Shown here piece by piece: positions 5,270 through 56,862 of a DNA stretch of 64,000 nt. The stretch is from an uncultured Mycoplasmatota bacterium (GTDB lineage: Bacteria; Bacillota_I; Bacilli_A; RF39; UBA660): NCBI GenBank assembly GCA_948434005.1, contig CAOJEH010000001.1, positions 13,678-77,677 of the forward strand, read 5' to 3'. Numbering within the stretch: the stretch's first letter is position 1; each line of letters begins with the position of its first letter. The notes beneath the pieces were generated by a model. The model ran no database searches, was not told the DNA's origin, and was given only the letters and a program-made list of their open reading frames with translations. The position numbers and the translations under genes are program-made.

Positions 5270-5503
5270 TTATTTTTTTAGAACTATTTCTTTTATTTCT
5301 AGGCTATTTGTAAGTATATCATTATAACTATAAGATTTTGTTCTATTAGTATAATCATTTACTTTGACTGTAAATATTGATTTATAAACCCCTGTTATTT
5401 TTCCTATAAATTCTTCAGTTTGGTTTCTGGCACCTTTAAACTTAAATAAAAATAAATTACCTTTGTTACTTGTTATAAAACTTCTTATCTTATTTATATT
5501 CAT
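5270..5503 (-). CDS. veg: Veg protein (biofilm and sporulation associated)
   Basis: 77 aa; SYSYNDILT motif matching Veg SYSYADILT; lies directly downstream of yabG as in B. subtilis. Confidence 0.8.
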   Translation of the reverse strand: MNINKIRSFITSNKGNLFLFKFKGARNQTEEFIGKITGVYKSIFTVKVNDYTNRTKSYSYNDILTNSLEIKEIVLKK

Positions 5504-6366: not shown

Positions 6367-7860
6367 TTATTTTTTTATTTTTCTTTTTATAATTATTGTA
6401 CCTATCGATAATATTATAATAATTGAAGAGATAATTATATATTCCTTTTTTAGTATTTTATTTGATTTATGTAATTTATCTTCTTTTTCTATAGAAGGAT
6501 TTTTAATAGCTGAAGATTTATTTACACGTAATATATATTTTCGTTGATTACCATTTGGTGCTTTCACATTAATAGTTATTATATTCTTTGCAGACTTTAA
6601 CGATGTATCTGAAACAGTTACTTTACTATTTGGGTTCTCAGTTTTATAATCAATAAGTAGATTATCTATATTTTTACTAACCACTAAGTCATACTCTAAT
6701 ATATCCTTATCAAAACTTATTTTATAATCTGATACTTTTAATAATTTTAAATAATTATTTGAAGATGACTTTTTAATATTATCCTCATACGAACTTAAAG
6801 TTTTACTCTCTGATACACTATCATCCATTATAACGTTATTTGGTACTTTCCCATCTTTACTTTTTCTATTGATAGTAATCATATATACTTTTTTACTATT
6901 ATTCTCTGCCAAAACTGTAATAGCAAAAACATTTTTACCTACTTTTAAATCTTTTTTTCCTATACCATTTACTATAGATTTAGATGATGATGCTTTAGCA
7001 TTTATATTTACTGACGTAATATCATTATTAACTGTAGCTTCATAATTAGTTTTTGTAGAACTAAATTTTATAGGGATTTTACTTATTTGTAACATTTTTA
7101 AACTATTATCTGAATCTCTATTATCTTTTCTATATACCACTATTTTATAATCTTTAGTAGCTCCAGATTCTGATATTGATGTAATAGTAAAAGTATTTGA
7201 ACCATACTTCAATGTTTTTTTACCTGTACCCACTACATTACCATTTGTTGAAGCAGTAGCATAAATAGAAACTTCTGATTGATTTGTTGTTATATTATAA
7301 GTTGTTATTTCAGAATTAAATTTAGGAGATAAATTACCTATATTAACAGATAAATTAGTCAAATTACTATTTGTAGATACTACTTTTAAATCAATAAATT
7401 TAGATTCATAGTTATCCTCTTGATAATTCTCATTACCTATCTTTATATTATTTATTGATATTTTCCCACCATTTACATTTTTAACTCTTACCTTAAAGTT
7501 ACCTATATTTATTTTACCTGATAATAATGATGCAGTAGATAATATATATTTACCATTAACTGAACTTGAAAAGTCTTTTGAAAATTCATTTGAGAATTCT
7601 GAAGATACTAATTCTAAATTATTACTAAGCTCTAGTTGGGCCTGAAAAGAAGTTAGGCTTCCTTTATCTATATTAGCATCTATATTACAAGATATAGTAT
7701 CACCTAGTATTGCATTTTTTTTATCACATTTTAAAGTAATAGGATTATCATTAGATGTAGATGTAATATCTGTTAATAGTTTATTTTTATCAAAAATAGA
7801 AACAATCAATAATATAATACATAAACCCGCTATTACAAATAGCGCTATTTTATTTTTCAT
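6367..7860 (-). CDS. Membrane-anchored surface protein: signal peptide, cohesin-like domain, three cadherin-like beta-sandwich repeats, C-terminal TM anchor
   Basis: N-terminal signal/anchor MKNKIALFVIAGLCIILLIVSIF. Residues ~35-165 fit the cohesin pattern (ILGDTISCNIDANIDKGSLTSFQAQLELSNNLELVSSEF...), compared with CipA cohesins KPGDTVNIPVRF...DFVYSYDPNVLEI. Repeated ...YKIVVYRKD / YMITINRKSK / YILRVNKS modules. C-terminal hydrophobic stretch IIISSIIIILSIGTIII followed by KRKIKK. Confidence 0.55.
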   Translation of the reverse strand: MKNKIALFVIAGLCIILLIVSIFDKNKLLTDITSTSNDNPITLKCDKKNAILGDTISCNIDANIDKGSLTSFQAQLELSNNLELVSSEFSNEFSKDFSSSVNGKYILSTASLLSGKINIGNFKVRVKNVNGGKISINNIKIGNENYQEDNYESKFIDLKVVSTNSNLTNLSVNIGNLSPKFNSEITTYNITTNQSEVSIYATASTNGNVVGTGKKTLKYGSNTFTITSISESGATKDYKIVVYRKDNRDSDNSLKMLQISKIPIKFSSTKTNYEATVNNDITSVNINAKASSSKSIVNGIGKKDLKVGKNVFAITVLAENNSKKVYMITINRKSKDGKVPNNVIMDDSVSESKTLSSYEDNIKKSSSNNYLKLLKVSDYKISFDKDILEYDLVVSKNIDNLLIDYKTENPNSKVTVSDTSLKSAKNIITINVKAPNGNQRKYILRVNKSSAIKNPSIEKEDKLHKSNKILKKEYIIISSIIIILSIGTIIIKRKIKK

Positions 7861-7870
7861 ATTACACCTC

Positions 7871-10800
7871 CTATAATTTACTTATATTTTTCATAATATA
7901 TGCAAAAAGTTTAGATAAATCTGTTATTGTCACTCTATTATCATCATTAACGTCACTAGACTTTATATTTGGTAAATCAATACTATAATTATCATCTACT
8001 ATATACCTAAATAGCCTTGATATATCTGTTATACTAATTAATCCATCATTATTAATATCTCCTCTAACAGAAAGATAAATCTTATAGTTTTCACCATTAT
8101 TATCTATCATTTGAATATAACTACCTGTTGTTATAATATCAGTATCTTCAATTAAATTATTCTTAGAATTATATAAAGAATAGTGATAATTGCTATTAAA
8201 AGAGGTATTTTTAATAAATTCTTTTACTGTAGTTTGTACTCCTATATTATAAATTAAGTTATTTTCTATATCATACCCATAAACTTCTGTTTTAATTAAT
8301 CCATCTATTGACCATACTGCATATAAATCTATAGTTTCATCTTCATTTATTAAGTTGATAATCTCTTGCTGTTCACTATAAGTTTTTCCAGTACCATCCG
8401 GTTTTGTATTCCACCCAGAAAATTTATAATAACCATTTTTAAATGTATTTTCTAATAACTTATCACTAGCGTTAAAAGTAACACTTTGAGTAATTATATT
8501 ATCTTCATCTGTATTAGAATGATAATTTATATTATATTTAGAAACCTTTACAGATACAGGGAGAATCTTTTTTGTTCCATTTGATATACTAACTATAATA
8601 ATATTAGCACTACCTACAGCTTTTGCAGTTATATTTCCATTTTTATCTACTTCTAATATATCGTTATTATCTGAATAGTATACAACGCCCTTATTGAAAA
8701 TATTTCCTTCTACAGTAGATTCAATAACATAATTGTCACTATGCGATAAGTTTATAGTTAATTCAGAAATATTTGGTATTATATTTGAAACTTTATTAAC
8801 TACCTTTTTATTATTTATAGTTGGAAATGAATTATCAATTATCCAATTATTTTCAAAATTAGGCCAATTAAAGTTATTTTCTATATCATAAGCATCAATA
8901 TAATCTATCTTTTTTACATTTTCTTTAACCAATACATTTTGTGCGATAGTACCTTTAAAATAATTTATATTTTCAATATTAATGTTCTCATCAGTTAAAG
9001 GTGCTATAGATGAATCCCTACATACTAACTCATCACTACAATGAGAAGTATATTTTTCACCTGTTGATGATACTAATTCTTCTTTTCCTTCACAAGATAA
9101 ACATCCTATATTTCCTGTATTATAACCACTATTAACAAATAGATTACCTGTTATATTTACATTACCAGAAGAATCAAATGTCATATTATTTAACTGTCCT
9201 ACGCCTCCTGCTGCAAATATCTCTGCAGTAACATCTCCATAGTTAATAAAACTAGTAATATTAGCAGAATTAGTCTTTCCAATTAATCCCCCCACTATAT
9301 CTTGACTATCTACTTTAGCTGTATTTATAACTTTATCTAAAGTAGCCAATGTAGTTTCTCCACCAATTCCTCCTGCTATATTATTACCATTTACTATACC
9401 TTCATTGGCGCTATTTATTACACTAGCAATTTTTAAACTACCATAAATTCCACCTGATATTTTAGAGTAAATTTCTGAATTATTATAACAATTAGTAAAG
9501 CTTATAGGAACAAATGAATTAGAATTAGCTACTAGTCCCGCTGCTTTTCCTTCAGAAGAAATATTACTAGAAGTAATAGATACATTATCAATAATTATAT
9601 TTGATACATTACTATCTGCTTCTAAAGTTCCAACTAGTGCAGCCACGTTATTATTAGAAGAATTAACTATATTAAAATTTTGTAATGTAAGATTGCTAAA
9701 AATAGAATTATTATCATTCACTTTACTAACAGTAACTGAGTCAAATAAACCGTTACGTGTACTATATAATCCTGTTATCTTATGATTATCACCATCAAAT
9801 GTACCTTTAAAGTTTGTAATAGATTGCCAACCAGTACCACTATTATAAAATATTCCATTTTCATTTTGAGTATCATATGTAAGATCAATATCATTAGAAA
9901 GTTTATAAGAACTAGAGGTAGATGTTCTAATCAAATCTAAATCAGAAGGACTTTTTATAAGATATGGATTATCTATAGTTCCCTCTCCTTCTAAGGATAT
10001 ATATGGAGCTTCTATAATTAAAGAAGTTTCATCAAGATATTCTCCATTATGATATACCTCTATAATATACTCACCAGGTATTAACTTATTTGATACACTC
10101 ATAGATGCAATAACAAAGTCTCCTGATACAGCATTATCACTATAAGAATTAATATATTGAGATATATCTTTTCCATTTAAATCATATATCTTGTAATCTA
10201 ATGTTTCTCCCTCTGGTATACCATATACCTGAGATTCTATAGTAAAATCATAGCTAGGTACAATAACTTCTGTACTATAATCAACTGGTGAAGTAGTAAC
10301 ACTTGCTACACCATCACTATTTAAAAATAATTTAGGAGTTGATATATTTATAGGAGTAAGATAATCTGGATCTTCTATATGGAAAACACATTTATCTGAG
10401 CGCTCTAAATTTTTATCATATAAGTCTACTGTATACCATCCTTTTAAATCAATACCTACAGTATCTATTAATTTCCTGCCATTAGATGTCTTATAGTATA
10501 CTTTTACATTTCTATCAGTTGAATTAGAAAAAAATTTAAGTTTTGACATTCTTGAATCGATTGGTGCATTAAAAACTATCTTTTTTTGCTCTTTGCCCGA
10601 TACAGTAACATTTTCTAGTTTTGTATAATCAAGTTGATAATCCCATGTTCTATCTGCCATAGAAACCATTTTAGTCACTACAGCAGGCTCTACTGCTAAG
10701 CTATAGGGTAAATACAAGTATTTTTTTGCACTAGTATCTCCCCAAGAATTTTTTATAATCCACGACCCCTCTGTATTTTCGTGTATTACTGAGGCAGGAC

Positions 10801-11701
10801 AATCTTCAATAGACCTATTCCATTCACAATACTTATATTTATAATTATCATCCCAACCTATAATTTGCATAGCATGATCAGTACCTAGTCCATATAAAAC
10901 ATAATTATTATCATAAATATTACGACCAGTATTAGTATTTGGACTAATTGTCATTACATACATACCACCATAGTTTTTTACCATATGTTTTATCATATTA
11001 TAATCAGATTCTGAACTAAGATGAAAAGGCATATGTTTAGCCTCATCTACTTCATATAATGAACTACTATAATTATAAATTTCACTTTTTTTCTTCATTG
11101 TCGTATCATAATAATTACCACTTTTTAATATCTTCTTATCCCAACTTGCATCTTTTGTTGCATAACCAGATGTCGCTACATGCATAACATAATAAAAGTT
11201 TCCACCTCGACCTAAACTTCTATTTGCATAAGCAAATTTAAAGTCAAAAATACCATCATTTGATGTGGCATAATCAAGTTGCCTTTCTGAAAAAATTTGA
11301 CTACTAGAAGAAACTGGTTGATTGTTAGTTATCGCTAGATATGTCTCCATTTGAGCATTTGTTGCAAAAGACCAGCACAAACCTAATGAACCCTGATTTT
11401 TAATTGGTGTCATATAATTTTTGCCATCAATATCTCTAAGATCAAATTTTGAAGGTAAGTTTTCATCTATTTGTTCTATAGCTTCTGGAGTAGAATCTAC
11501 AATTAAATCCGTTGGTATTACTTCCCTTTTTTCTTGTTCATAAGAGCTCATTGTCAAATAATCAACAAAATCCGGGTTTAAATATGCCTCATTTGGTTGT
11601 TTATTTTTTTCTGTCAAAATTATATTATCAGTTTCGGCATAATAAGCTTTAATGTAATTTTTAGCTTCTTTAGGTAAATAACTATAACTAGAAGTTTCCA
11701 T
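7871..11701 (-). CDS. 1276-aa multidomain protein: papain-like (C1) cysteine peptidase, GLUG-motif beta-helix region, Big_2 domain, Listeria-Bacteroides repeats, C-terminal type-I dockerin. No N-terminal signal peptide.
   Basis: C1 catalytic motifs NQGSLGLCWSFA (Cys), GTDHAMQIIGWDD (His), IKNSWG (Asn). GLUG-like repeats AAGLVANS, AGGIGGET, VGGLIGKT, AAGGVGQL. Big_2-like VYYSDNNDILEVDKNGNITAKAVGSANIIIV. Listeria-Bacteroides repeat GYYKFSGWNTKPDGTGKTYSEQQ. Dockerin GDINNDGLISITDISRLFRYI ... SDVNDDNRVTITDLSKLFAYI at the C-terminus. A 10-bp gap to the downstream cohesin gene suggests an operon. Confidence 0.75.
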   Translation of the reverse strand: METSSYSYLPKEAKNYIKAYYAETDNIILTEKNKQPNEAYLNPDFVDYLTMSSYEQEKREVIPTDLIVDSTPEAIEQIDENLPSKFDLRDIDGKNYMTPIKNQGSLGLCWSFATNAQMETYLAITNNQPVSSSSQIFSERQLDYATSNDGIFDFKFAYANRSLGRGGNFYYVMHVATSGYATKDASWDKKILKSGNYYDTTMKKKSEIYNYSSSLYEVDEAKHMPFHLSSESDYNMIKHMVKNYGGMYVMTISPNTNTGRNIYDNNYVLYGLGTDHAMQIIGWDDNYKYKYCEWNRSIEDCPASVIHENTEGSWIIKNSWGDTSAKKYLYLPYSLAVEPAVVTKMVSMADRTWDYQLDYTKLENVTVSGKEQKKIVFNAPIDSRMSKLKFFSNSTDRNVKVYYKTSNGRKLIDTVGIDLKGWYTVDLYDKNLERSDKCVFHIEDPDYLTPINISTPKLFLNSDGVASVTTSPVDYSTEVIVPSYDFTIESQVYGIPEGETLDYKIYDLNGKDISQYINSYSDNAVSGDFVIASMSVSNKLIPGEYIIEVYHNGEYLDETSLIIEAPYISLEGEGTIDNPYLIKSPSDLDLIRTSTSSSYKLSNDIDLTYDTQNENGIFYNSGTGWQSITNFKGTFDGDNHKITGLYSTRNGLFDSVTVSKVNDNNSIFSNLTLQNFNIVNSSNNNVAALVGTLEADSNVSNIIIDNVSITSSNISSEGKAAGLVANSNSFVPISFTNCYNNSEIYSKISGGIYGSLKIASVINSANEGIVNGNNIAGGIGGETTLATLDKVINTAKVDSQDIVGGLIGKTNSANITSFINYGDVTAEIFAAGGVGQLNNMTFDSSGNVNITGNLFVNSGYNTGNIGCLSCEGKEELVSSTGEKYTSHCSDELVCRDSSIAPLTDENINIENINYFKGTIAQNVLVKENVKKIDYIDAYDIENNFNWPNFENNWIIDNSFPTINNKKVVNKVSNIIPNISELTINLSHSDNYVIESTVEGNIFNKGVVYYSDNNDILEVDKNGNITAKAVGSANIIIVSISNGTKKILPVSVKVSKYNINYHSNTDEDNIITQSVTFNASDKLLENTFKNGYYKFSGWNTKPDGTGKTYSEQQEIINLINEDETIDLYAVWSIDGLIKTEVYGYDIENNLIYNIGVQTTVKEFIKNTSFNSNYHYSLYNSKNNLIEDTDIITTGSYIQMIDNNGENYKIYLSVRGDINNDGLISITDISRLFRYIVDDNYSIDLPNIKSSDVNDDNRVTITDLSKLFAYIMKNISKL

Positions 11702-11776: not shown

Positions 11777-13042
11777 TTATTTTTGAAATATAGATTTCGC
11801 TTTTTTATAACATTTAAAACAGTTTTTATATAAATTATATTTTCCTGGAGATATAACTAAATCAAACTCACCAATCAATTCATGTACACAAGCATTAAAA
11901 CCTCTTTTAAAATCAAACAACCCATAATTCTTTGATTTTTTAGAGAAGTTTCCATCTATACCATAGAAATTAAAAGCTTCATAACCATTTTTTATAGCAT
12001 AATCTATCATCTCATATTGTAATAAGTATTGAGAATTATACTTCATAAATTTTTTATAACTAGCACCAAAGAGATAAACTATTTCTCTACCATAAAGCAT
12101 ATACCAACCACCAGCAATGATTTTTTTATCACCATATTCTTTTATTGTATCTTCTAATAATCTTATTTTATTTTTAATATTTTCTTGTTCCGCTGATAGT
12201 TCTTTTATTTGTCCTTTATTTCTAGGTATATCACTTAGTTTTTCTAACTTTTCCTTATTTTTCTTTAAATCTTCTTCTGTTTTATCCTTAAGTTTCTTAA
12301 AATTAATCTCTGCTAATAAAACTTTTACTAAATTATCTTTTTTTAATACCCTATACATATTCTCATAATATGATAATGGTCTATCAATAAAATCTCTTCT
12401 TTCAGCAGTATGTTTCATTAGATTCTTAAATTCATATAAGTTAGTTTCATCTGCTTCTATTATAGTTAAACAATTTTTTTTACTATTATTAATACCCCAA
12501 CGTGTACCACTACGCATATTTTTAAATAATCCATCTATAGTTTTATCTTTTATATCTAATATAGATATCCATCTAGGTTCTAAATCACTTTTTTTATCCT
12601 GATCGATATAAAAACCGTTATGTTTATAGCCAAGTCTTTTAAAATTATTCATTAATTCATCATTTACAGTACCTTCTACTATATTTCCATCTACATCTCT
12701 TTGTTGATAATCTATATATGGATTTATTTTTAAAAATAAAGCTGACTCATTTTTTAAATATTCTTTTATTCCTTTAGTAAATTCTTCTAATAATTGATAA
12801 TCAGAATAGTCTAATAAAAATCCTCTAGGCGCATAAAACATTTTACCAAAAAAACTAATATTTTTACTTAATAAAAGTGTTGCTGCCACGATTTTTTTAC
12901 CTTCTACTAATCCTACATAATGACTATTCCATCCATTACTCTTCTTTATTTTGCCCCAATAAGGATTTTGAAAAAAAGATGTTTGAATACTTGTTTTAGA
13001 AAACTCCAAAAATTCTTTTTCTTTTAATGTTATAAATTGCAT
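11777..13042 (-). CDS. FemAB-family peptidoglycan cross-bridge aminoacyl-tRNA transferase
   Basis: 421 aa; GNAT-like halves with a central coiled-coil arm (KKLKDKTEEDLKKNKEKLEKL...IKNKIRLLEDTIKEYG) typical of FemA/FemX/MurM; C-terminal GGWYMLYGREIVYLFGAS. Confidence 0.75.
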   Translation of the reverse strand: MQFITLKEKEFLEFSKTSIQTSFFQNPYWGKIKKSNGWNSHYVGLVEGKKIVAATLLLSKNISFFGKMFYAPRGFLLDYSDYQLLEEFTKGIKEYLKNESALFLKINPYIDYQQRDVDGNIVEGTVNDELMNNFKRLGYKHNGFYIDQDKKSDLEPRWISILDIKDKTIDGLFKNMRSGTRWGINNSKKNCLTIIEADETNLYEFKNLMKHTAERRDFIDRPLSYYENMYRVLKKDNLVKVLLAEINFKKLKDKTEEDLKKNKEKLEKLSDIPRNKGQIKELSAEQENIKNKIRLLEDTIKEYGDKKIIAGGWYMLYGREIVYLFGASYKKFMKYNSQYLLQYEMIDYAIKNGYEAFNFYGIDGNFSKKSKNYGLFDFKRGFNACVHELIGEFDLVISPGKYNLYKNCFKCYKKAKSIFQK

Positions 13043-18970: not shown

Positions 18971-20488
18971 TTATTTATTATCGATTCGCATAAATAATGG
19001 AGTTGGTTCATTTAATGAGTAACTATTATCAGTAATATAATTTAAACTATCATTATCATTATTGATTTGTTTTAATATTTCATCACTAGTATCAGGTAGA
19101 TATGGCTTTAACAAAAGAGCACAAACCCTTATTGATTCTAATAAATTATATATTACTGTTTCTAACTTATCCTGCATTGAAGGATTCTTTGCTAAAACCC
19201 ATGGCGTTGTTTCATCTATATATTTATTACTAATTCTTAATACATCAAATATTTCATCTATAGATGAACTTATTTCTAGTTTATCCATTTTTGCCTCTAT
19301 TGCAGAATCTAAATTATTTACTGCATTAATAAGATTTTTATCATATTCTGTTTGTTCATTTTTATTAGAAATATTACCATTAAAATATTTATTTCCCATA
19401 GATATAGTTCTTTGAACCAAATTTCCTAATACATTAGCTAAATCTCCATTTATTCTTTCTATTAATAATTCACGAGTTATATTACCATCACTAGAGAATG
19501 GGATTTCATGTAATAAATAATATCTAACAGCATCAACACCAAATTCTTTTACTAATTCATCAGCATAAATAACATTTCCCTTACTCTTACTCATTTTATC
19601 ATTATTCATTAATAACCATGGATGGCCAAATACTTTTTTTGGAAGGTCTAATCCTAATGAAAATAAGAAACATGGCCAATATATAGTATGAAACCTAATA
19701 ATGTCTTTTCCTATTAATTGAACATCTGCAGGCCAATACTTTTTAAATGTATCTGTAACATTATCAACATCATAACCAATATTAGTAATATAATTAGTAA
19801 GTGCATCTAGCCAAACATATACGATATGCTTATCATCAAAATCGACTGGTACTCCCCAATCAAATGATGTACGAGAAACACATAAATCTTGAAGACCTGG
19901 TTTAATAAAATTATTTAACATTTCATTTTTACGTGCAACAGGTTGAATAAAGTCTGGATGACTTTCTATATATTCTTCTAATTGTTTTTGATATTTTGAT
20001 AACCTAAAGAAATATGCTTCTTCTTTTCTCTCTTCTACTTCTCTACCACAATCGGGACAAGTGCCTTCTACTAATTGAGATTCAGTCCAAAAGGATTCGC
20101 AAGGAACACAATAAAGTCCCCTATATTCTCCTTTATAAATATCTCCTTTATCATACATTGTCTTAAAAATATGTTGCACTATTTTTTCATGATTAGTATC
20201 TGTTGTTCTAACAAAATTATCATAACTAGTATTCATAATATCCCAAATATCTTTTATTTCTAAAGATAATTTGTCTACATATTCTTTTGGACTAACGTTA
20301 TTTTCTTTTGCCTTTTTCTCTATTTTCTCTCCATGCTCATCTGTACCTGTTTGAAAATATACATCATATCCTTTCAATCTTTTATATCTTGCAATTGAAT
20401 CGGCTAAAACAATTTCGTAAGTGTTACCTATATGAGGTTTACCTGAGGTATATGCAATTGCAGTAAATATAGAAAAACTTTTTGCCAT
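18971..20488 (-). CDS. metG: Methionyl-tRNA synthetase (short form lacking the C-terminal tRNA-binding domain)
   Basis: HIGN (HIGH-type) motif PHIGNTYEIVLAD; KMSKS motif; 505 aa. Confidence 0.93.
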   Translation of the reverse strand: MAKSFSIFTAIAYTSGKPHIGNTYEIVLADSIARYKRLKGYDVYFQTGTDEHGEKIEKKAKENNVSPKEYVDKLSLEIKDIWDIMNTSYDNFVRTTDTNHEKIVQHIFKTMYDKGDIYKGEYRGLYCVPCESFWTESQLVEGTCPDCGREVEERKEEAYFFRLSKYQKQLEEYIESHPDFIQPVARKNEMLNNFIKPGLQDLCVSRTSFDWGVPVDFDDKHIVYVWLDALTNYITNIGYDVDNVTDTFKKYWPADVQLIGKDIIRFHTIYWPCFLFSLGLDLPKKVFGHPWLLMNNDKMSKSKGNVIYADELVKEFGVDAVRYYLLHEIPFSSDGNITRELLIERINGDLANVLGNLVQRTISMGNKYFNGNISNKNEQTEYDKNLINAVNNLDSAIEAKMDKLEISSSIDEIFDVLRISNKYIDETTPWVLAKNPSMQDKLETVIYNLLESIRVCALLLKPYLPDTSDEILKQINNDNDSLNYITDNSYSLNEPTPLFMRIDNK

Positions 20489-20494
20489 AATTTC

Positions 20495-20760
20495 ATCTCC
20501 TTTTTATTGAGGTTAATATTAACTATAGTATATTATGAAAATAAAAAAATATTATAACATAAGGACGAATTACTCCGCGGTTCCACCTTATTTTATAATA
20601 TCAATTATACTCTCAAATAGTTAACGCCTATATACGATCATACCTACATATCGATATGATGGTTCAAAAGCCATATTTTATAAATTATCTATATCTACTT
20701 TCACCAACATAGACTCTCTTTAATAGATACTATTTATAAAACTCTTTCTCACAACCTCTA
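20495..20760 (-). ncRNA. T-box riboswitch leader of metG
   Basis: On the minus strand the conserved T-box sequence AAGGTGGAACCGCGG is present (plus-strand CCGCGGTTCCACCTT at 20575-20589). Stem I base AAAGAGAG (plus CTCTCTTT at 20714-20721) is followed by GGTGAAAGTAG. A candidate AUG specifier lies in AAAAUAUGGC. I could not fold the terminator confidently by eye. Confidence 0.5.
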
Positions 20761-20787
20761 ATTGAAGCTATAATATCATATATTTTT

Positions 20788-33315: not shown

Positions 33316-35034
33316 CTATTTTATTTCTACTATATCTTTAAATAAACCTAACGGACTATCCTCTATATCTATGCTTTCTTCTTTTAGTGTATTTATAATT
33401 AAGTCAGGCTCTTTTATAATATCATACTTTTTACCATTTTTAGTATTATTAATGTATTCTTTTTTCAACTTATTCCAGTTATCTTTACTCACTATTGCAA
33501 TTTTTTTATCTGATTTAGTTAAATTATTATATATATCATTAAGTTTTTGCAAATTATTTATATTAGTATCCACTACTGATTCATATTCATAGCTTATTAT
33601 CATTCCTAAAGTACTAGAAGCTTCTATTGTAGCATTAAGAAGTTCTGAAACTATATAACCAATCTTTTGATCAAATACATAATCATTTAAAGAATTCATC
33701 AATTGCAAATCGTTTGTCTTTTCTGTTTTATCAGCTGTTGCTAAAACATTATTTACTCTAATCTTATTTATTTCAAGTATATTGGAAGATTCTACCAATT
33801 TACTTTCAGTAAATTCAGTATTGCTATCTTTTTCTTGTTGCTCCACTATCTGTTCCTCTTCTATTTTAGAATTTTCTTCAATATCAACTTTACTTGGTTC
33901 TGGTACTTCTATTTTTTCTTCTTTAGGTTGTTTTTCTTCATTTACTATCTTTTTTTCCACAGTTTTATCATCTTTTGGGAAATAATTTATTTCCTGGGGA
34001 ATATTTTTATGTTCATTAACAAAATTCAAAAACATTATTTCTATGTATATTTTTGGATTTCCATTCTTTTTTATATCGAACATTTTTTCGTTTATTAAAT
34101 TTGCTAAATGTTGATAAATTTCAATAGATTCTATTTCATCATTACCATTTATATAATAATTTACAATACTATTTCTTAATAATACCAACAATTGAACTAT
34201 TATTTCTACTAGATTCTTTCCACCATCACTATAAGATTTAATTTTACTTATAATTTCATTATTATTAAAAGATAAAATACTATTTTTAAAGTCCTCTAAT
34301 TCCTTTTCAGTTATCATATCATTTATTTCATAATAATCTTCTATTGTTATTTTATCACTCTTATAAGACGATAATTTATCAAGTACACCTAAAGAATCTC
34401 TTAATCCACCATCTGAGAATTCTGCAATTAATTCCAAAACTTTTTTATCTATTTCTATTTTTTCTTTTTTACATACTTCTTCTAGTTTTAATACTATGTT
34501 ATCAGTACTTATTCTTTTAAAAGAATAGCACTGGCACCTTGATATAATTGTATCAGATACCTTTTGTGGATCAGTAGTTGCTAAAATAAATATAACATGC
34601 TTAGGTGGTTCTTCTAAAGTCTTTAATAATGCATTAAATGCACCTGATGTAAGCATATGAACTTCATCTATTATATATACTTTATATTTCAACTCACTTG
34701 GTACTATATTTACCTTACTTTTTATTTCTCGAATTTCGTCTACACCATTATTAGAAGCCGCATCAATTTCGATTATATCCACACTATTTACAGATTTTTC
34801 ACAGTTTTCGCACTTTTCACAAGGATTTCCATCATTTGGATTTAAACAATTAACAGTTCGAGATAATATTTTTGCAATTGTTGTTTTACCTATACCTCTA
34901 GGTCCAAAAAACATATAAGCATGACTTATTTTATCGTTCTTTATTGAATTTTTTAAAGTTTTTATAACAAAATCTTGTCCAACTACATCATCAAAACATT
35001 TTGGTCTATATTTTCTATATAACGCTTGATACAC
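33316..35034 (-). CDS. dnaX: DNA polymerase III subunits gamma/tau
   Basis: Walker A GPRGIGKTT; zinc module CLNPNDGNPCEKCENC; SRC motif TIISRCQ; 572 aa. Confidence 0.95.
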   Translation of the reverse strand: MYQALYRKYRPKCFDDVVGQDFVIKTLKNSIKNDKISHAYMFFGPRGIGKTTIAKILSRTVNCLNPNDGNPCEKCENCEKSVNSVDIIEIDAASNNGVDEIREIKSKVNIVPSELKYKVYIIDEVHMLTSGAFNALLKTLEEPPKHVIFILATTDPQKVSDTIISRCQCYSFKRISTDNIVLKLEEVCKKEKIEIDKKVLELIAEFSDGGLRDSLGVLDKLSSYKSDKITIEDYYEINDMITEKELEDFKNSILSFNNNEIISKIKSYSDGGKNLVEIIVQLLVLLRNSIVNYYINGNDEIESIEIYQHLANLINEKMFDIKKNGNPKIYIEIMFLNFVNEHKNIPQEINYFPKDDKTVEKKIVNEEKQPKEEKIEVPEPSKVDIEENSKIEEEQIVEQQEKDSNTEFTESKLVESSNILEINKIRVNNVLATADKTEKTNDLQLMNSLNDYVFDQKIGYIVSELLNATIEASSTLGMIISYEYESVVDTNINNLQKLNDIYNNLTKSDKKIAIVSKDNWNKLKKEYINNTKNGKKYDIIKEPDLIINTLKEESIDIEDSPLGLFKDIVEIK

Positions 35035-35651: not shown

Positions 35652-35723
35652 ATGTTTCACGTGAAACATACTAAAACTATATAAAATTTTTATAAAAAAA
35701 TACAATGTTTCACGTGAAACATC
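35652..35723. promoter_or_regulatory. parS: Two perfect parS centromere sites (TGTTTCACGTGAAACA) in tandem, 54 bp apart
   Basis: The 18-bp perfect palindrome ATGTTTCACGTGAAACAT occurs at 35652-35669 and 35706-35723; the 16-mer core matches the Firmicute parS consensus TGTTNCACGTGAAACA exactly. Confidence 0.8.
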
Positions 35724-35774
35724 ACATTTTAAATACTATTTTATTTCCCGGGAAATATTTTTTATATGAAATAT

Positions 35775-41423: not shown

Positions 41424-41858
41424 TTATCTATCTCTCATTATTAAATCTAATCTAGAAGCTCTTAATATTTGATTTTCTATAGTTCTTCTAGATACAGGTA
41501 TTAATATTGATATATCATTATTGAATATTATATTAGTTGAATTATAATCTGCAGCTTCTATTTTTTTAATATTTTTTAAAGATATCCAACAACAATCCTC
41601 TGCAGATGGTGAATTAGTTGGAAAGAATATTATATTTTTACTATTTTCAACTATAATTGGAACTTTATAATTTATATCAAGTATTGCTTTAGTTCCCTCT
41701 TTTCTTCCTTCGTATGATGACCCAAAATATTTACAACTATAATCCATTATTTCATATGGTGTATTATTTATAACATATTCTTTGCTATCTTCTAATACCT
41801 TACTCTTCTCTTCTTTAGGTAATATTGCTAAAGTACCTTCATTAATTTCATAATTCAT
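41424..41858 (-). CDS. comK: ComK-family competence transcription factor homologue (short, 144 aa)
   Basis: Alignable with B. subtilis ComK over most of its length: EINEGTLAILPKEE / YEVNGATIAVLPEE; DYSCKYFGSSYEGRKEGT / DRSCRFFGSSYAGRKAGT; VPIIVENSKNIIFFPTNS / PPIMVDPSNQIFLFPTLS; CCWISLKNIK / CGWISHVHVK; IENQILRASRL / FENQVYRTAWL. It lacks the ~45 C-terminal residues of ComK. Confidence 0.7.
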   Translation of the reverse strand: MNYEINEGTLAILPKEEKSKVLEDSKEYVINNTPYEIMDYSCKYFGSSYEGRKEGTKAILDINYKVPIIVENSKNIIFFPTNSPSAEDCCWISLKNIKKIEAADYNSTNIIFNNDISILIPVSRRTIENQILRASRLDLIMRDR

Positions 41859-47038: not shown

Positions 47039-47794
47039 ATGTATGGTGCAACTTTATATGCGATAAAACAACAATTTGAAGAAAGACAAAAAATAAGGGA
47101 AGCAATGAAAGGTGAAAAAGAAGAAAAAGAAAAAATAGAATTAGCAAAACAAATATTAACAGTTATTAAGAATAATTTAGAAAATTGTGCACAAGAAGGT
47201 AAAAATTTAATAACAAAGATTTCTTATGAAGATGAGGAAACTAGAGAAAAAATAAATAAATGCTTTAATAAATTAATAGAATTAGGTTGGGAAGAAGGAA
47301 TAAGCATTTATATGAGTTATGATAAATTAAAACCAGAATATTATGCAACGATAGAAAATATATTTTTTGATTATGATATGTATAGATTTATTAGTAATAA
47401 TAGAAAACAATTCCTTGATGCCAATGAAAAAAATTATATAGATTTAGAAAAAAAATACTTTGAACAATTATCAGAAGGAACAGATATTTCAACTTTATTA
47501 TGTTCTATAGAACAAGTAGATTCTATCGATTCAATAGAAAAAATAGATGAAAAAAATCAAATTTATACTAAAGCTTTAGCTAATGCGGCATATAGAATAG
47601 GTATGGAAAATGATCCTGATTTAATAGAACTTGGTTTTTCTATAGAACCAACATATTATGATATATTCGGTTTTAGAATAGATAGTAATAAATATGAAAA
47701 TTATATTCAAATAATGCACAGATACTATAAAGAAAAAACACCAAAAGAAAGTCAAAGCTTGCAACAAAAGGTAAAGAATCAAAAAGAAGGTTAA
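47039..47794 (+). CDS. Hypothetical K/E-rich cytoplasmic protein inserted between jag and mnmE
   Basis: 251 aa; good RBS AAAAGGAGATG; no recognisable domain; a bidirectional terminator (AAAAAATAGCAATTGCTATTTTTT, ~47797-47820) follows. Confidence 0.45.
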   Translation: MYGATLYAIKQQFEERQKIREAMKGEKEEKEKIELAKQILTVIKNNLENCAQEGKNLITKISYEDEETREKINKCFNKLIELGWEEGISIYMSYDKLKPEYYATIENIFFDYDMYRFISNNRKQFLDANEKNYIDLEKKYFEQLSEGTDISTLLCSIEQVDSIDSIEKIDEKNQIYTKALANAAYRIGMENDPDLIELGFSIEPTYYDIFGFRIDSNKYENYIQIMHRYYKEKTPKESQSLQQKVKNQKEG

Positions 47795-49665: not shown

Positions 49666-50169
49666 ATGGACTTAAAAAATTTTAATTTAGCCCCTTTATA
49701 CAAATTAGATCAAGAATGGGCATTATTAACAGCAGGAACAAAAGAAAAATTTAATACAATGACAATTAGTTGGGGAGGATTTGGAACTATTTGGAATAAA
49801 CCTGTAGTAACAGTTTATGTAAGACCAAATCGTTATACTTATGAGTTTATGGAAAACAATGAGTATTTTACTATTAGTTTTTATGATGAAGAGTATAAAA
49901 AAGATCTAGGAATATTAGGAACTAAATCAGGTAAAGATATGGATAAAATAGCCTTAACAAAACTAACACCAAATTTTTTAAGTAAAGGAATTTCATTTAA
50001 AGAAGCAGAATTAACAATTATATGTAAAAAAATTTATTTTCAAGATTTAGATATTAATAATATTAACAATCAAAGCATTGTACAGAGTGAATTAGATAGA
50101 TTTTATAAAGAAGAACCTATGCACAGAATGTATATAGGAGAAGTAATAGAAATTATAGATAGAAGATAA
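49666..50169 (+). CDS. Flavin reductase-like FMN-binding domain protein
   Basis: 167 aa; pattern PLYKLDQEWALLTAG...NTMTISWGGFGTIW...VYVRPNRYTYEFM is typical of the split-barrel flavin reductase family. Confidence 0.6.
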   Translation: MDLKNFNLAPLYKLDQEWALLTAGTKEKFNTMTISWGGFGTIWNKPVVTVYVRPNRYTYEFMENNEYFTISFYDEEYKKDLGILGTKSGKDMDKIALTKLTPNFLSKGISFKEAELTIICKKIYFQDLDINNINNQSIVQSELDRFYKEEPMHRMYIGEVIEIIDRR

Positions 50170-50186
50170 GTAAAAAGGAGTAGTGT

Positions 50187-50843
50187 ATGAAAATAGCAAT
50201 TATAGAACGTATAGAAAATGATGATAAGGACAAAACATTTAGTAAAAATTTTTATATGAATAATTATTTTCAAGAAATATTTGAAAAATTAAATATTTTA
50301 TGGATACCTATAGTATCAGAACAATTTTCAGAAGAAATATGTGAAATGTGTGATGGATTAGTAGTTACAGGAAGTTGTAATGATGTTCATCCAAAGTATT
50401 ATAACGAACAACCAATTGAAGGGAAAGATTATATATATGATGAATTTCCTACAGTAAAAAAGGCGGTAGAACTTTTTTCTAAAAATAATAAACCAATATT
50501 AGGTATATGTGCAGGAATACAAGAGATTAATGTAGTCTTTGGTGGAACTCTAAATCAATTAATCAAAAATCATAACTTAAAAGATAAATCTAAACACAAT
50601 GTAGAAATAAAAAAAGACACACTATTATGTAGCATATACAAAAAAGAATATATGGAGGTAAATTCTTATCATAAACAATCTATTAAAGATATAGCCCCAG
50701 GATTTAAAGTAGGAGCAATTAGCAGTGATGGTGTAATAGAAGCTATAGAAAAAGATAATATTATAGCAGTACAGTGGCATCCGGAAGCTTTATATGATAT
50801 GAAACTATTTGAAAAGTTTATCGACATGTGTAAAAGAAAGTAG
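50187..50843 (+). CDS. Class I glutamine amidotransferase-like hydrolase (peptidase C26 / gamma-glutamyl-GABA hydrolase family)
   Basis: Catalytic Cys in ILGICAGIQEIN; His in VQWHPE; 218 aa. Confidence 0.7.
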   Translation: MKIAIIERIENDDKDKTFSKNFYMNNYFQEIFEKLNILWIPIVSEQFSEEICEMCDGLVVTGSCNDVHPKYYNEQPIEGKDYIYDEFPTVKKAVELFSKNNKPILGICAGIQEINVVFGGTLNQLIKNHNLKDKSKHNVEIKKDTLLCSIYKKEYMEVNSYHKQSIKDIAPGFKVGAISSDGVIEAIEKDNIIAVQWHPEALYDMKLFEKFIDMCKRK

Positions 50844-53363: not shown

Positions 53364-53485
53364 GTAAAAGGGATGTTAAAAATATTAATCTCTTTTTTTA
53401 TTTCAACTCTTTTCAAAATAAAAAAATAATGATATACTATATAATAGAATAAAAGAATAAAAGAATAAAAAGAGAGGTATTAGGT

Positions 53486-55099
53486 ATGCAGCAAGGAGAA
53501 GAAGTAGTATATCTATATTTGGATGATATTATTCCTAATAGGTTTCAACCTAGAGAAGTATTTGATGAAAGACCTTTAAAAGAATTAGCTGTTTCTATAA
53601 AAGAACATGGAGTAATACAACCAATTATAGTAAGAAAAGTAAATGATAAATATGAAATAATAGCTGGTGAACGTAGATATAAAGCTTCTGCTTTAGCTGG
53701 ATTAACTAAGATACCTGCAATTATTAGAGATTTAGATGATAAAGAAACTTCTAAAGTAGCATTGTTAGAAAATTTACAAAGAAAAAATTTGAATCCATTA
53801 GAAGAAGCTAAAACATATCAAAAAATATTAGAAATAGATGAAATGACCCAAGAAGAGTTAGCAAAAACAATGGGAAAAAGTCAATCAGCAGTATCAAATA
53901 AGATAAGACTTCTATCATTATCTGAAGAGGTTCAACAAGCGTTATTAAAAGAAGAAATATCAGAAAGACATGCAAGAGCATTATTAAATATAGATGATAA
54001 AGAAGAACAAAACAAATTATTAAAAGAAATTATAGATAATAAGATGACAGTAAGACAATTAGAAGCAAAAATTAAAGGAGAAACTGTTTCAAATCAATCA
54101 ATAAACGAAGTATCATCTGAAATTACACCAAATATAGCTATTCCAGAAAATAGCGAAGATATAGGTTCTCAAACCAACTTCTTATCAAGTAGCCCATTAG
54201 TACCAAATTTTGGAGAAAATGAATCAGTAAATCAAAATAATCCAATGGCTTCAATTTTTAATAATATAGAGCAAAAAGAAGAACCATTAATAGTGAATAC
54301 TAATACTGAACCAAATTCTATGATGAATCAGTCAGAAGAAGATAAGGAGCCTTTAATAACAATGCCTAATGAAAATAATATAAATCAATCTGATGATTCA
54401 CAATCTAGTGAACCATTAATAATGATGTCAACAAATTCTAATGAATCATCAAATAATAGCAACGATAATAGTAATACTGAGAATAATAAATTTATAAATT
54501 TCGGAGAAATAGATGATGATGAAGATGATGAACCTGCAGATGAAAAGTTTTACGAAGATACTATTAATGATAGTCCTAGCATTTCATTTGGAGCAGGGCC
54601 AATATCAGCTAATAATGCAATTGACTTAGATGATTTAAAACAAAATACCAAAGATATTAATATCAAAGATGAGAACGCACCAGGCGCAGATTTAGATAGT
54701 CTATTAAGAATTAATAATAATGATTTATCAATTAATAATTCTAATACAGAAGAAAACGATAGTTTTAAGTTTTTTTCTCCAGCTGCAGAAGCAATAAAAG
54801 AAAGTGAAAATAATGAAAAACCAAAAAATAGCGAAGACTACTTTAAAGCTCCAGACTTGATGGGGATAGATTTACCAGGTGAAGTTCCTACATATAATAC
54901 AAATAATGTTCCATTAGCAAGTAATATAGATACTAAATCTATAGAAACAGAATCAAAACAAAATAGCTTAGAAAATGCTATAAATATTATAAATAATTCT
55001 ATAAAGGAAATAGAACAATCAGGCATTAAAGTAGAAAAGGATGAAATGAATTTAAATAATTCTTATCAAGTAATAATCAAATTAGAAAAAGACAACTAA
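53486..55099 (+). CDS. noc: Noc/ParB-family protein with a long low-complexity internal region (positional Noc orthologue)
   Basis: N-terminal ParB box IPNRFQPREVFDE...GVIQPIIVR...EIIAGERRYKAS...ALLENLQRKNL; HTH QEELAKTMGKSQSAVSNKIRLL. C-terminus LENAINIINNSIKEIEQSGIKVEKDEMNLNNSYQVIIKLEK aligns with the B. subtilis Noc C-terminus ...[33 protein letters not shown]. Between them lie ~320 aa of N/S/E/D-rich sequence with three E/K/S-EPLI repeats. Confidence 0.8.
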   Translation: MQQGEEVVYLYLDDIIPNRFQPREVFDERPLKELAVSIKEHGVIQPIIVRKVNDKYEIIAGERRYKASALAGLTKIPAIIRDLDDKETSKVALLENLQRKNLNPLEEAKTYQKILEIDEMTQEELAKTMGKSQSAVSNKIRLLSLSEEVQQALLKEEISERHARALLNIDDKEEQNKLLKEIIDNKMTVRQLEAKIKGETVSNQSINEVSSEITPNIAIPENSEDIGSQTNFLSSSPLVPNFGENESVNQNNPMASIFNNIEQKEEPLIVNTNTEPNSMMNQSEEDKEPLITMPNENNINQSDDSQSSEPLIMMSTNSNESSNNSNDNSNTENNKFINFGEIDDDEDDEPADEKFYEDTINDSPSISFGAGPISANNAIDLDDLKQNTKDINIKDENAPGADLDSLLRINNNDLSINNSNTEENDSFKFFSPAAEAIKESENNEKPKNSEDYFKAPDLMGIDLPGEVPTYNTNNVPLASNIDTKSIETESKQNSLENAINIINNSIKEIEQSGIKVEKDEMNLNNSYQVIIKLEKDN

Positions 55100-55193: not shown

Positions 55194-55982
55194 ATGGGAA
55201 AGATAATTTCTTTAGTAAATCAAAAAGGTGGAGTAGGAAAAACAACTACAAGTATTAATCTTTCTGCGTCCCTTGCAGCACTAAATCAGAAAGTATTATT
55301 AATAGATTTAGATCCACAGGGAAACACTACAACAGGTGTAGGTATAAATAAAGGTGATATAGAAACAAGTATTTATGACGTTTTAACTGGAAAGTGTACT
55401 ATAGAACAAGCAATAGTACAAACAAAATATAAAAATCTATATGTAATACCTGCAACTATAAATTTAGCTGGATTAGATATCGAACTATTAGAAAAAAGTC
55501 AAACTGAACCAGGTTTTTCTAAAGGGACTCAATTAAAAAGTCACATAGAAAAAATAAATCTTAATTATGATTTTATTATAATAGATTGTCCTCCATCATT
55601 AGGTTTAATTACAACAAATGCCTTAACAGCATCTAATTCAGTAATAATTCCAGTACAATGTGAATTCTTTGCATTAGAAGGAATTATGCAATTATTAAAT
55701 ACTATAATGTTAGCCCAAAAAACATTAAATCCTAATTTAGATATAGAAGGAGTCCTTTTAACAATGTTAGATTCCAGAACTAATTTAGGCTTCGAAGTAG
55801 TAGAGGATATAAGAAAGTTCTTTAAAGAGAGAGTTTATAATACAATTATACCAAGATTAATTAGATTAACAGAAGCTCCTTCACATGGAGAACCAATTAT
55901 TGCATATGATCCAAAAAGTAGAGGATCAGAAGCATATATGAATTTAGCTAAGGAAGTGATTGAAAGAAATGGAAAACAATAA
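55194..55982 (+). CDS. soj: Chromosome partitioning ATPase ParA/Soj
   Basis: Deviant Walker A NQKGGVGKTTT; 262 aa. Confidence 0.95.
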   Translation: MGKIISLVNQKGGVGKTTTSINLSASLAALNQKVLLIDLDPQGNTTTGVGINKGDIETSIYDVLTGKCTIEQAIVQTKYKNLYVIPATINLAGLDIELLEKSQTEPGFSKGTQLKSHIEKINLNYDFIIIDCPPSLGLITTNALTASNSVIIPVQCEFFALEGIMQLLNTIMLAQKTLNPNLDIEGVLLTMLDSRTNLGFEVVEDIRKFFKERVYNTIIPRLIRLTEAPSHGEPIIAYDPKSRGSEAYMNLAKEVIERNGKQ

Positions 55983-56862
55983 TTTAAAAAGAAGAGCATT
56001 GGGGAGAGGGTTGGAAGAATTATTTAATAATGAACCTATAGATTATAATAAAATGGAAGAGAAGATAATTACAGAAACACCAAAAGAACAAATTATAAAA
56101 ATATCTTTAGATGATTTAAGAAGTAATCCATATCAACCAAGACAAGTCTTTGATCAAAACGCCTTAGATGAGTTAGCTGCCTCTATAAAGGAACATGGAG
56201 TTTTTCAACCTATAATTGTTAAAAAAAGCATAAAAGGTTATGAAATAATAGCAGGAGAGCGTAGAGTTAAAGCTTCAAAAATAGCAGGATTAAAAGAAAT
56301 ACCAGCAATAGTTAGAGAATTTTCTGATAATGAGATGATGGAAATAGCATTATTAGAAAATTTACAAAGGGAAAATTTAAACTCAATAGAAGAAGCTATG
56401 GCATATAAACAATTACTAATTAATTTAAAATTAACACAAGAACAATTAGCAGAAAGATTAGGTAAGAGTAGAAGCCACATTACAAATATGATAGGTTTAT
56501 TAAATTTACCAAAACAAACACAAGATCTAATAAGTAGTAAAAAAATAACTATGGGTCACGCTAGAGTATTAAGTAAATTAGAAGATGAAGAAAAAATAAA
56601 CTCTTTAGCAAGCCAAATAATTTTAGATGGACTAAGCGTTAGACAATTAGAAGATATAACATCTAGTAAGGATGAATTTGAAAGAAAGAATAAAATTACT
56701 AGAGTAAAACAAGTAAAAAATCATGATTATGATTATTTAGAAGAAGAATTATCAGAAAAACTAGGAACAAAAGTAAAAGTAAAAAATACAAAATTGGAAA
56801 TTACTTTTGCTAATAGTAATGATTTAAATAGAATATTAGAAATAATGAATCTAAATAAATAA
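55960..56862 (+). CDS. spo0J: Chromosome partitioning protein ParB/Spo0J
   Basis: ParB boxes RSNPYQPRQVFD and GERRVKASKIAGL; HTH QEQLAERLGKSRSHITNMIGLL; C-terminal KLGTKVKVKNTKLEITFANSNDLNRILEIM. Confidence 0.95.
   Translation: MKEMENNNLKRRALGRGLEELFNNEPIDYNKMEEKIITETPKEQIIKISLDDLRSNPYQPRQVFDQNALDELAASIKEHGVFQPIIVKKSIKGYEIIAGERRVKASKIAGLKEIPAIVREFSDNEMMEIALLENLQRENLNSIEEAMAYKQLLINLKLTQEQLAERLGKSRSHITNMIGLLNLPKQTQDLISSKKITMGHARVLSKLEDEEKINSLASQIILDGLSVRQLEDITSSKDEFERKNKITRVKQVKNHDYDYLEEELSEKLGTKVKVKNTKLEITFANSNDLNRILEIMNLNK

Follow-up and report, generated by a model that had tools for sequence, protein, structure and literature searches.

Location and Start Site of the Gene

The window, which is the whole stretch of 64,000 nt analysed here (contig CAOJEH010000001.1 of an uncultured Mycoplasmatota bacterium, GC content 25.6%), carries on its forward strand a gene for a 537-aa protein of the ParB family, hereafter called long Noc. 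The protein resembles the Noc protein of nucleoid occlusion, is devoid of the N-terminal membrane-targeting helix, and has a long acidic tether in front of its C-terminal domain. Such a long, helix-less Noc is real and conserved, and the searched literature contained no description of a helix-less or long-linker Noc. The gene and the parts of its product were located as follows:

53440..53485 (+), leader, with tataat at 53440-53445, an in-frame TAA at 53450-53452 and the ribosome-binding site agagagg at 53471-53477
53486..55099 (+), stop codon included, long helix-less Noc orthologue of 537 aa, identified by open reading frame (ORF) call and by Pfam, NCBIfam and PDB matches
53501..53779 (+), CTPase domain of the ParB_N type, aa 6-98, containing GERR (R64), soon followed by ENLQR (N96); Pfam PF02195, E = 1.9e-34
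53783..54076 (+), HTH_ParB DNA-binding domain, aa 100-197, with residues Q133, K139, S144 and R161; Pfam PF17762, E = 8.8e-34
54077..54961 (+), polyanionic disordered tether, aa 198-492 (295 aa), net charge -45, by composition and AlphaFold
54962..55096 (+), C-terminal (dimerisation) domain of the Noc type, a helix and then two strands, by TIGR04285 and AlphaFold

The ORF call agreed with the length and position given in an earlier annotation of the same DNA made from the letters and ORF translations alone (the sequence-only reading). Translation of the ORF opens MQQGEEVVYLYLDDIIPNRFQP, and the N-terminus of long Noc is MQQGEEVVYLYLDD. The leader TAA stands in frame 12 codons before the noc ATG, which is the first start codon after it and follows the Shine-Dalgarno sequence agagagg by 8 nt, so that no upstream start can restore an N-terminal helix. 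The same holds in relatives. A scan of GTDB with one genome per species, in which the linker and C-terminal domain served as query, matched 19 species, all of them uncultured gut or rumen metagenome-assembled genomes (MAGs). An upstream in-frame stop was found 1-26 codons before the start in 19/19 orthologous noc loci, which also shared the tataat...aaagagaggta leader and whose proteins begin 4-9 residues before strand β1. A mis-called N-terminus or an upstream start is ruled out by these stops.

The amphipathic membrane-targeting helix at the N-terminus of Noc (about aa 1-10) is therefore lacking from long Noc. Alignment to PDB sequences begins at residue 23 of Geobacillus Noc, with helices α1 and α2 missing, and an N-terminus resembling the membrane-targeting sequence was present in 0/267 family members. 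The sequence-only reading had already remarked on the missing helix, with the reservation that an upstream start codon might restore it; the remark holds, and the reservation falls with the TAA at 53450-53452.

Identity of Long Noc

The two genes that follow noc are the partition genes soj and spo0J:

55194..55982 (+), soj/parA, matched by AAA_31 and ParA of Pfam
55960..56862 (+), spo0J/parB, the canonical paralogue, with an N-terminal LGRGLEELF ParA-contact motif and parS-type residues R...G

The order mnmE-mnmG-rsmG-X-soj-spo0J-mscS-DUF951-abgT, in which X is long Noc, was kept in 19/19 GTDB species. The rsmG-noc-soj-spo0J slot of the origin cluster (ORI cluster, described in PMC8136486) was thus occupied in the window and in all 19 related species. 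Across these species Soj was 83-93% identical, and long Noc only 50-66%.

The top NCBIfam model was nucleoid_noc (TIGR04285), with 293.4 bits over two stretches against a curated cut-off of 315; the neighbouring Spo0J scored 236 bits against the same model. The shortfall arises because the tether splits the match into two stretches. When the last 61 residues were searched alone, aa 488-536 matched positions 208-255 of the 255 in TIGR04285 (E = 2.4e-5), and AlphaFold predicted this C-terminal domain as a helix and two strands, with a predicted local distance difference test score (pLDDT) of 76-94. At the other end of the protein, pLDDT was 82-90 over aa 1-197. The best PDB match was Geobacillus Noc (7nfu, 219 bits), followed by B. 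subtilis Noc (186 bits) and Spo0J/ParB (∼175 bits). A faint Pfam match to KorB (E = 0.003) was also returned.

Conservation of key residues was assessed by searching aa 1-200 against 1.84 billion representatives; the best 150 (50%-identity clusters) were analysed, and residues were counted on 149. R64 and N96 are the equivalents of R89 and N121, which B. subtilis Noc needs for CTP binding and clamping, and both were invariant (149/149). Through the PDB alignment, Q133, K139, S144 and R161 mapped onto Q158, K164, K169 and R186 of B. subtilis Noc, the residues that set specificity for the Noc-binding site (NBS); Q and R with a lysine at either permissive position suffice (Jalal 2020). Three of the four are present in long Noc, S144 standing in place of K169, and across the representatives Q was found in 149/149, the K139 equivalent in 149/149 and R in 148/149. 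The Noc C-terminal domain was at the extreme C-terminus in 127/149. At the four specificity positions the neighbouring Spo0J carries R, M, N and G, and it also possesses the ParA-contact peptide RRALGRGLEELF; on these grounds it is an ordinary ParB. Long Noc has neither the parS-specificity residues of ParB/Spo0J (R173 and G201 in Caulobacter numbering) nor the N-terminal ParA-activating peptide; it has Q and R, and no LGRGL.

Long Noc thus has the CTP-binding domain (GERRxR, ENLQR), a Noc C-terminal domain predicted to dimerise, the gene position of noc, and a cognate NBS in its genome. It is very probably a Noc orthologue with predicted binding to NBS, and is best filed, on its sequence features, as a Noc-derived variant and not as a canonical Noc. 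The orthology had been proposed in the sequence-only reading, which recognized a ParB-box and HTH N-terminal half and about 45 Noc-like residues at the C-terminus; Pfam (ParB_N, HTH_ParB) and TIGR04285 positions 208-255 agree with both parts, and synteny, specificity residues, the cognate NBS, and the higher scores of Noc over Spo0J/ParB in the PDB and NCBIfam alignments (219 versus ∼175 bits in the PDB) agree with the whole. For annotation, a protein of the ParB family that occupies the noc slot and measures 335-800 aa can be taken as Noc-derived despite missing the TIGR04285 cut-off.

The Tether and Its Conserved Motifs

The tether contains 60 acidic and 15 basic residues, with 16.9% N, 12.5% S and one Arg in 295 residues, and its pLDDT was mostly 33-50. 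Searched alone, it gave no match in Pfam, NCBIfam or PDB sequences (E up to 10), and AlphaFold of the tether and C-terminal domain alone showed no globular fold besides the C-terminal domain, whose pLDDT was 86-94. Within the tether, at least six short linear motifs were conserved in the close family:

54170..54220 (+), motif S1, N/S-P-L-x-P-N-F, aa 229-245; P237 and P240 invariant in the 71-sequence family alignment
54275..54424 (+), three E-P-L-I copies, aa 264-313 (EPLI at aa 266, 288 and 309)
54485..54514 (+), motif S3, KFINFGEI, aa 334-343; N338 and G340 invariant, K335, F336, I337, F339 and I342 at least 90% conserved
54617..54661 (+), motif S4, I-D-L-x-x-L-K-x-N-T-x-D-I, aa 378-392, by conservation; predicted short helix, AlphaFold pLDDT 65-73
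54683..54715 (+), motif S5, (A/N)DLDSLL(R/K/N)I, aa 400-410; D404, L406 and L407 invariant, AlphaFold short helix
54761..54811 (+), motif S6, SFKFFSPAxEAIKESE, aa 426-442; F429, F430, S431, A433 and A436 at least 90% conserved, S440 invariant
54833..54916 (+), motifs S7, EDYFKAPDLxxxDLP (aa 450-465), and S8, TNNVPL (aa 469-477); Y452, F453, P456 and L458 invariant

Alignments of 120, 71 and 18 members showed spacers that drifted in length and sequence, and short islands that were invariant or at least 90% conserved. It is exactly at these islands that pLDDT climbs to 60-73 and short helices are predicted. The middle of the protein had been described from the letters as a 320-aa disordered insertion: it is long and disordered by AlphaFold pLDDT, but it measures 295 aa and has conserved motifs inside. 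The three EPLI repeats and the acidic run (DDDEDDE) of that description are present, whereas its polyasparagine is not, the longest Asn run being 3. Relatives carry one EP(L/I)(L/I) motif; three copies occur only in this species group, with no detectable DNA-level tandem repeat behind them.

Motif S6 is the most amphipathic segment of the tether, with a hydrophobic moment of 0.61 for FKFFSPAAEAIK versus 0.43 for the B. subtilis Noc helix, and AlphaFold predicted a helix at its aa 432-441. KFINFGEI has the top 3-10-type amphipathic moment of the tether, and a likeness of KFINFGE to the N-terminal RFFGLGE of canonical Noc was seen in a by-eye comparison only. When the profile of the tether and C-terminal domain was compared with other families, only same-family fragments were returned, in a candidate list swamped by low-complexity words. 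Mimicry of the QLxLF clamp-binding motif or of the FtsZ C-terminal peptide by LDSLL or DYFKAPDL was considered and rejected, as the spacing, judged by eye, is wrong.

Distribution in Relatives

Almost all of the best 150 clusters, which were 57-87% identical to aa 1-200, were long (335-798 aa, median 462), and more than 100 clusters at 90% identity were full-length homologues of 440-540 aa. An identical linker was found in other assemblies, namely in P0001 (the full protein bar a 17-aa gap) and in P0006 (a fragment). P0001 is without aa 169-185, 17 residues of the DNA-binding domain corresponding to window positions 53990-54040, which may reflect strain variation or a difference in assembly or calling. 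The AT-rich, low-complexity DNA of the linker is of a kind prone to assembly errors, and the gap in P0001 could be read in the same direction, so that a mis-assembled stretch, a fused gene or a decaying pseudogene had to be considered, the first of them also by the sequence-only reading. The chance of any of these is close to nil: the same linker occurs in independent assemblies, and more than 100 clusters of full-length homologues, the 19 GTDB species and the 150 representative clusters all show an intact frame with the conserved C-terminal domain at its very end. The assembly artefact in particular is refuted by the identical linkers and the intact homologues.

Over the wider clade, the linkers consisted of 14.9% N, 10.9% E, 8.6% P, 7.2% D and 0.9% R, and their net charge over the best 150 clusters had a median of -25 and an extreme of -85. 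FG dipeptides numbered 110 versus 45 ± 6.7 in shuffles, FD was enriched, and R/K was enriched just before F. Hidden Markov models (HMMs) of the tether motifs matched only 0-15 of the 149 wider-clade representatives each, the S4 model reaching 15 more distant clusters, and the motifs are thus subfamily-specific. Some distant helix-less Nocs (e.g., P0145, P0272 and P0209) had 350-560-aa Asn-rich tethers made of repeated aromatic-Gly motifs ((D/N)SLFG, DFYGFNQNF), reminiscent of FG-repeat or sticker-and-spacer domains.

These data bear on two accounts of what the tether might do. In the first, the two ∼300-aa polyanionic chains of each spread clamp dimer would act as a steric and electrostatic brush, which repels FtsZ polymers or the divisome without a membrane or a partner. 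The sequence-only reading had leaned this way in proposing steric exclusion by a bulky disordered region. Composition and charge, not sequence, were conserved over 143 wider-clade linkers in proteins with a total length of 279-798 aa, and most motif HMMs failed to transfer to the wider clade, as a brush would allow. However, a pure brush does not require invariant residues in motifs amid freely drifting spacers, and in the close family these motifs point to specific docking. Occlusion in B. subtilis moreover needs DNA to be recruited to the membrane, and most NBS seen lie in one origin-proximal cluster (below), a poor layout for shielding a whole nucleoid. We regard the brush as unlikely.

In the second account, the membrane anchor has been relocated, with KFINFGE or FKFFSPAxEAIK binding lipid directly and DNA still being recruited to the membrane from an internal position. 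KFINFGE fits, in register, the pattern [KR]-F-[FI]-x-[LF]-G-E found at the B. subtilis N-terminus. When modelled as a 3-10 helix it is amphipathic, and a 3-10 conformation was seen for the B. subtilis Noc N-terminal helix (Jalal 2021); a heterologous amphipathic helix can replace the native one (Adams 2015). The hydrophobic moment of S6, the FG excess and the enrichment of R/K before F in the wider clade would also suit an anchor. On the other side, both motifs lie in a strongly acidic setting (e.g., KFINFGEIDDDEDDE) and the whole tether has a single Arg, which is unfavourable on anionic bacterial membranes; AlphaFold confidence for the motifs was only 50-70; and the likeness, seen by eye, spans 7-8 residues. 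A relocated anchor is accordingly judged quite improbable.

NBS and parS Sites Near the Origin

Cognate sites of both Noc and Spo0J were found on the far side of oriC from noc:

33988..34003 (no strand), degenerate NBS with 2 mismatches, inside dnaX, from the site scan
35653..35668 (no strand), second perfect 16-bp parS, 73 bp from the NBS
35706..35721 (no strand), perfect 16-bp parS TGTTTCACGTGAAACA, 20 bp from the NBS
35742..35757 (no strand), perfect 16-bp NBS TATTTCCCGGGAAATA, first element after the gyrA stop codon

The two parS and the NBS lie within 105 bp (35653-35757), in a 160-bp gap between gyrA and the signal recognition particle (SRP) RNA/tadA-like gene, and ∼8 kb from dnaA, a distance of 8-9 kb across the loci of the lineage. 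By our own arithmetic from base composition, the chance expectation for each perfect 16-mer is ∼1e-5 per window. A 14-bp NBS palindrome noticed from the letters at 35743-35756 is in fact the perfect 16-mer at 35742-35757, and the site search placed it inside a parS cluster near oriC, a setting that had escaped the earlier annotation. This location, together with the arrays of relatives (below), moves the likely place of action to the origin and its partition complex.

Loci of relatives were anchored on DnaA homologues, with 10 kb taken on each side. The NBS was at the same post-gyrA position in relatives, and the long helix-less Noc (456-525 aa) and a mixed post-gyrA cluster occurred together in 6/6 loci with both in view (window, L140-L143 and L145). 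In L146 and L147 the cluster was present and noc out of range. L144 differed in synteny after gyrA and had no cluster there, so that the position of the cluster is not universal. In 19 species, no NBS or parS was found within 6 kb of noc. An NBS inside dnaX occurred in five relatives, perfect in four (L140:20772, L145:21232, L146:20723 and L147:20795) and with one mismatch in the fifth (L141:20609).

A metagenome scan for a parS core followed by an NBS core within 5-35 nt returned at least 120 loci, and the results that follow are for the matches listed. These mixed loci were all AT-rich (GC 0.19-0.38). Among the 120 listed, a gyrA homologue (median 69% identity to that of the window) was found in 77, a tadA-like gene in 89 and dnaX in 71; where both flanking genes were present (60 loci), 262/367 sites fell in the gap between gyrA and the tadA-like gene. 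Arrays reached 18 sites (nine parS and nine NBS in L108; six and eight in L043; seven and eight in L142) and were built of tandem composite [NBS-spacer-parS-spacer] units of 106 or 118 bp. In 856 kb (L020-L143 and the window) there were 404 parS and 310 NBS cores, with the full 16-mer in 308/309 NBS; 292/310 NBS were within 1.5 kb of a parS, a clustered fraction that is biased upward because presence of a parS-NBS pair was the criterion by which the loci were chosen. The searched literature contained no account of interleaved parS/NBS arrays.

Distances between NBS and parS centres peaked at 26, 36 and 47 bp, with a Rayleigh z of ∼31 at a period of 10.5-11 bp that 0/2000 uniform nulls reached, shared ancestry of the loci not being removed. 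A period of ∼10.5 bp, with distances at half-integer helical turns, suggests from sequence spacing that the two loading sites keep a constant rotational orientation to each other.

Such an arrangement could also mean that the role of long Noc has changed, as the sequence-only reading allowed for in general terms. Long Noc would then be an accessory of the partition or origin complex that tunes ParB spreading or condensation, SMC loading or ParA, insulates oriC, or controls DnaA. The joint amplification of composite [NBS-parS] units, the phased spacing, and the position of the cluster 8-9 kb from dnaA fit this account, as do the joint action of Spo0J and Noc on Z-ring timing in B. subtilis and the loss of the membrane helix, which takes away the known effector of occlusion. 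Against it, dispersed NBS occur at about the density of B. subtilis, the Noc-specific C-terminal domain and three of the four specificity residues are retained, and there was no sign of contact with ParB, ParA or DnaA. A changed role also overlaps with the explanation that we favour rather than opposing it. On its own it is unlikely, and slightly more so than the brush.

Proposed Mode of Action

In B. subtilis, Noc without its 10 N-terminal residues neither bound liposomes nor complemented (Jalal 2021), and Adams 2015 reported that the N-terminal helix is needed for function and that its conservation is extreme across all Nocs examined. As the truncated B. subtilis protein is non-functional, long Noc would need a substitute for the membrane helix. 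The best explanation, to which we give a probability of roughly 45%, is a Noc-loaded origin complex in which a partner docks through the motifs of the tether. Long Noc would load as a CTP-gated dimeric clamp at the 16-bp NBS, which is expected because the CTPase domain, the HTH with its predicted NBS specificity and the dimerisation domain are all kept. Loading would take place side by side with Spo0J/ParB, and both proteins would spread over the same origin region as a mixed nucleoprotein complex. The tether motifs would dock a partner that either associates with the membrane or divisome or belongs to the partition machinery, and so replace direct binding to lipid. Partner recruitment is taken as the likeliest substitute because it is typical of docking motifs to be conserved, hydrophobic or aromatic, and embedded in acidic spacers that drift. 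The acidic chain would hold the tether off the DNA and extended, and two ∼300-residue tethers between the gate and the dimerisation domain would give the clamp an unusually wide lumen. The predicted outcome is that chromosome position is coupled to division or segregation in an origin-centred way, and not that DNA is recruited to the membrane chromosome-wide.

Several observations weigh against this explanation. The motifs are confined to the closer subfamily and their HMMs largely fail outside it, so that partner docking by way of exactly these motifs would leave the rest of the helix-less clade unexplained. The score of long Noc lies below the curated cut-off of TIGR04285, and position 144 was never K in the clade (S, N, T or A). 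The clustered fraction of NBS is inflated by the choice of loci, and the dispersed NBS (18 in 856 kb, or about one per 48 kb) are about as dense as in B. subtilis, so that loading may also be chromosome-wide. A second, canonical noc may also be present elsewhere in these genomes.

In its broadest form, the proposal is that a large clade of uncultured Bacilli has rebuilt nucleoid occlusion as an origin-centred system of ParB and helix-less Noc on phased composite arrays, with the tether motifs recruiting an envelope, divisome or partition factor. This extension of the sequence evidence to a whole clade is somewhat doubtful. Were it true, a CTP-switch clamp would have a second effector mode, mediated by protein, and bacterial centromeres would include a new kind with two clamps.

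Noc is the model for a CTP switch that couples DNA binding to membrane binding, and its helix is regarded as universal and essential (Adams 2015, Jalal 2021). The clade described here keeps the clamp, the predicted NBS specificity and the dimerisation domain and has dropped the helix for a motif-studded acidic tether. Either membrane recruitment is not the only mode of Noc, or the effector can be outsourced to a partner. The composite parS/NBS arrays are the most unexpected result. They offer a testable case of two paralogous CTP clamps on one loading platform and make the function experimentally approachable.

Genomic Context and Host

Besides the genes above, the window holds genes for FtsH, TilS, Mfd and a methionyl-tRNA synthetase with a T-box. 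These, the ComK-like gene between dnaN and recF, and the genes for the sporulation protease YabG and for a FemAB enzyme of peptidoglycan bridge formation indicate that the host is a walled Firmicute of Bacillus-like organisation, possibly spore-forming, and not a wall-less mollicute, although some related MAGs are titled 'Tenericutes'. The following features were also recorded:

500-2485 (-), FtsH with an extra C-terminal Rho_N-like domain, aa 624-656, E = 5e-8
5500-6288 (-), YabG sporulation peptidase (U57)
6367-11701 (-), 1276-aa protein with a papain-like C1 peptidase, Big_2 and a C-terminal dockerin, beside a 497-aa protein with cadherin-like domains
11777-13042 (-), FemAB-family peptidoglycan bridge-forming enzyme
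20558-20761 (-), T-box leader, 109 bits, upstream of the methionyl-tRNA synthetase gene at 18971-20488
41424-41858 (-), ComK-family gene, 144 aa, Pfam E = 2e-47, between dnaN and recF, and in the same place in 8/8 related loci fetched
47039-47794 (+) and 49666-50843 (+), lineage-variable insertions in the origin cluster

The dockerin-bearing C1 peptidase protein and its neighbour suggest a possible cellulosome-type surface protease. In the origin cluster, a 251-aa ORF without a Pfam match stood between jag and mnmE, where relatives had nothing or other cargo (a 1178-aa protein in L144, a DUF87/TrwB-like ATPase set in L146 and L147). Between mnmE and mnmG were genes for a flavin-reductase-like protein and a C26 peptidase/GATase, of which only the C26/GATase gene was found in relatives, and in some only.

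Comparison With Known Systems

Long Noc is closest to the Noc of B. subtilis and Geobacillus thermoleovorans (TIGR04285; PDB 7nfu, 7ng0, 7ol9 and 6y93), with which it shares the gene slot, the equivalents of CTPase residues R89 and N121, the 16-bp NBS, the equivalents of HTH residues Q158, K164 and R186, and a Noc-type C-terminal domain. Unlike canonical Noc, it has neither N-terminal helix α1 nor α2, and S, N, T or A stands in place of the K169 equivalent. Where canonical Noc has a short linker, basic in B. subtilis, long Noc has an acidic disordered tether of ∼300 aa that bears short motifs, and NBS are mostly clustered with parS near oriC and not only scattered. With chromosomal ParB/Spo0J (ParB_N, HTH_ParB and ParB_C), long Noc has in common the fold, the logic of the CTP clamp and loading sites proximal to the origin; it differs in having Q and R in place of R and G, in the absence of the LG(R/K)GL ParA-contact peptide, and in its Noc-type C-terminal domain.

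RacA of B. subtilis, RicO of S. aureus and RocS of S. pneumoniae are functional analogues only. They are site-specific DNA binders with sites near the origin, and their link to the membrane or pole is direct (the amphipathic helix of RicO) or made via a partner (RacA-DivIVA) (bioRxiv 10.64898/2026.03.06.710092). In contrast to long Noc, a putative origin tether, these proteins have an unrelated fold, no CTP clamp and no long acidic tether. KorB of plasmid RK2 is a plasmid-borne transcriptional repressor with other sites and domains, the sole link to long Noc being the faint Pfam match (E = 0.003); like the clamp proposed here, however, it is a ParB-family CTP sliding clamp whose output is set by protein partners and not solely by its binding to DNA.

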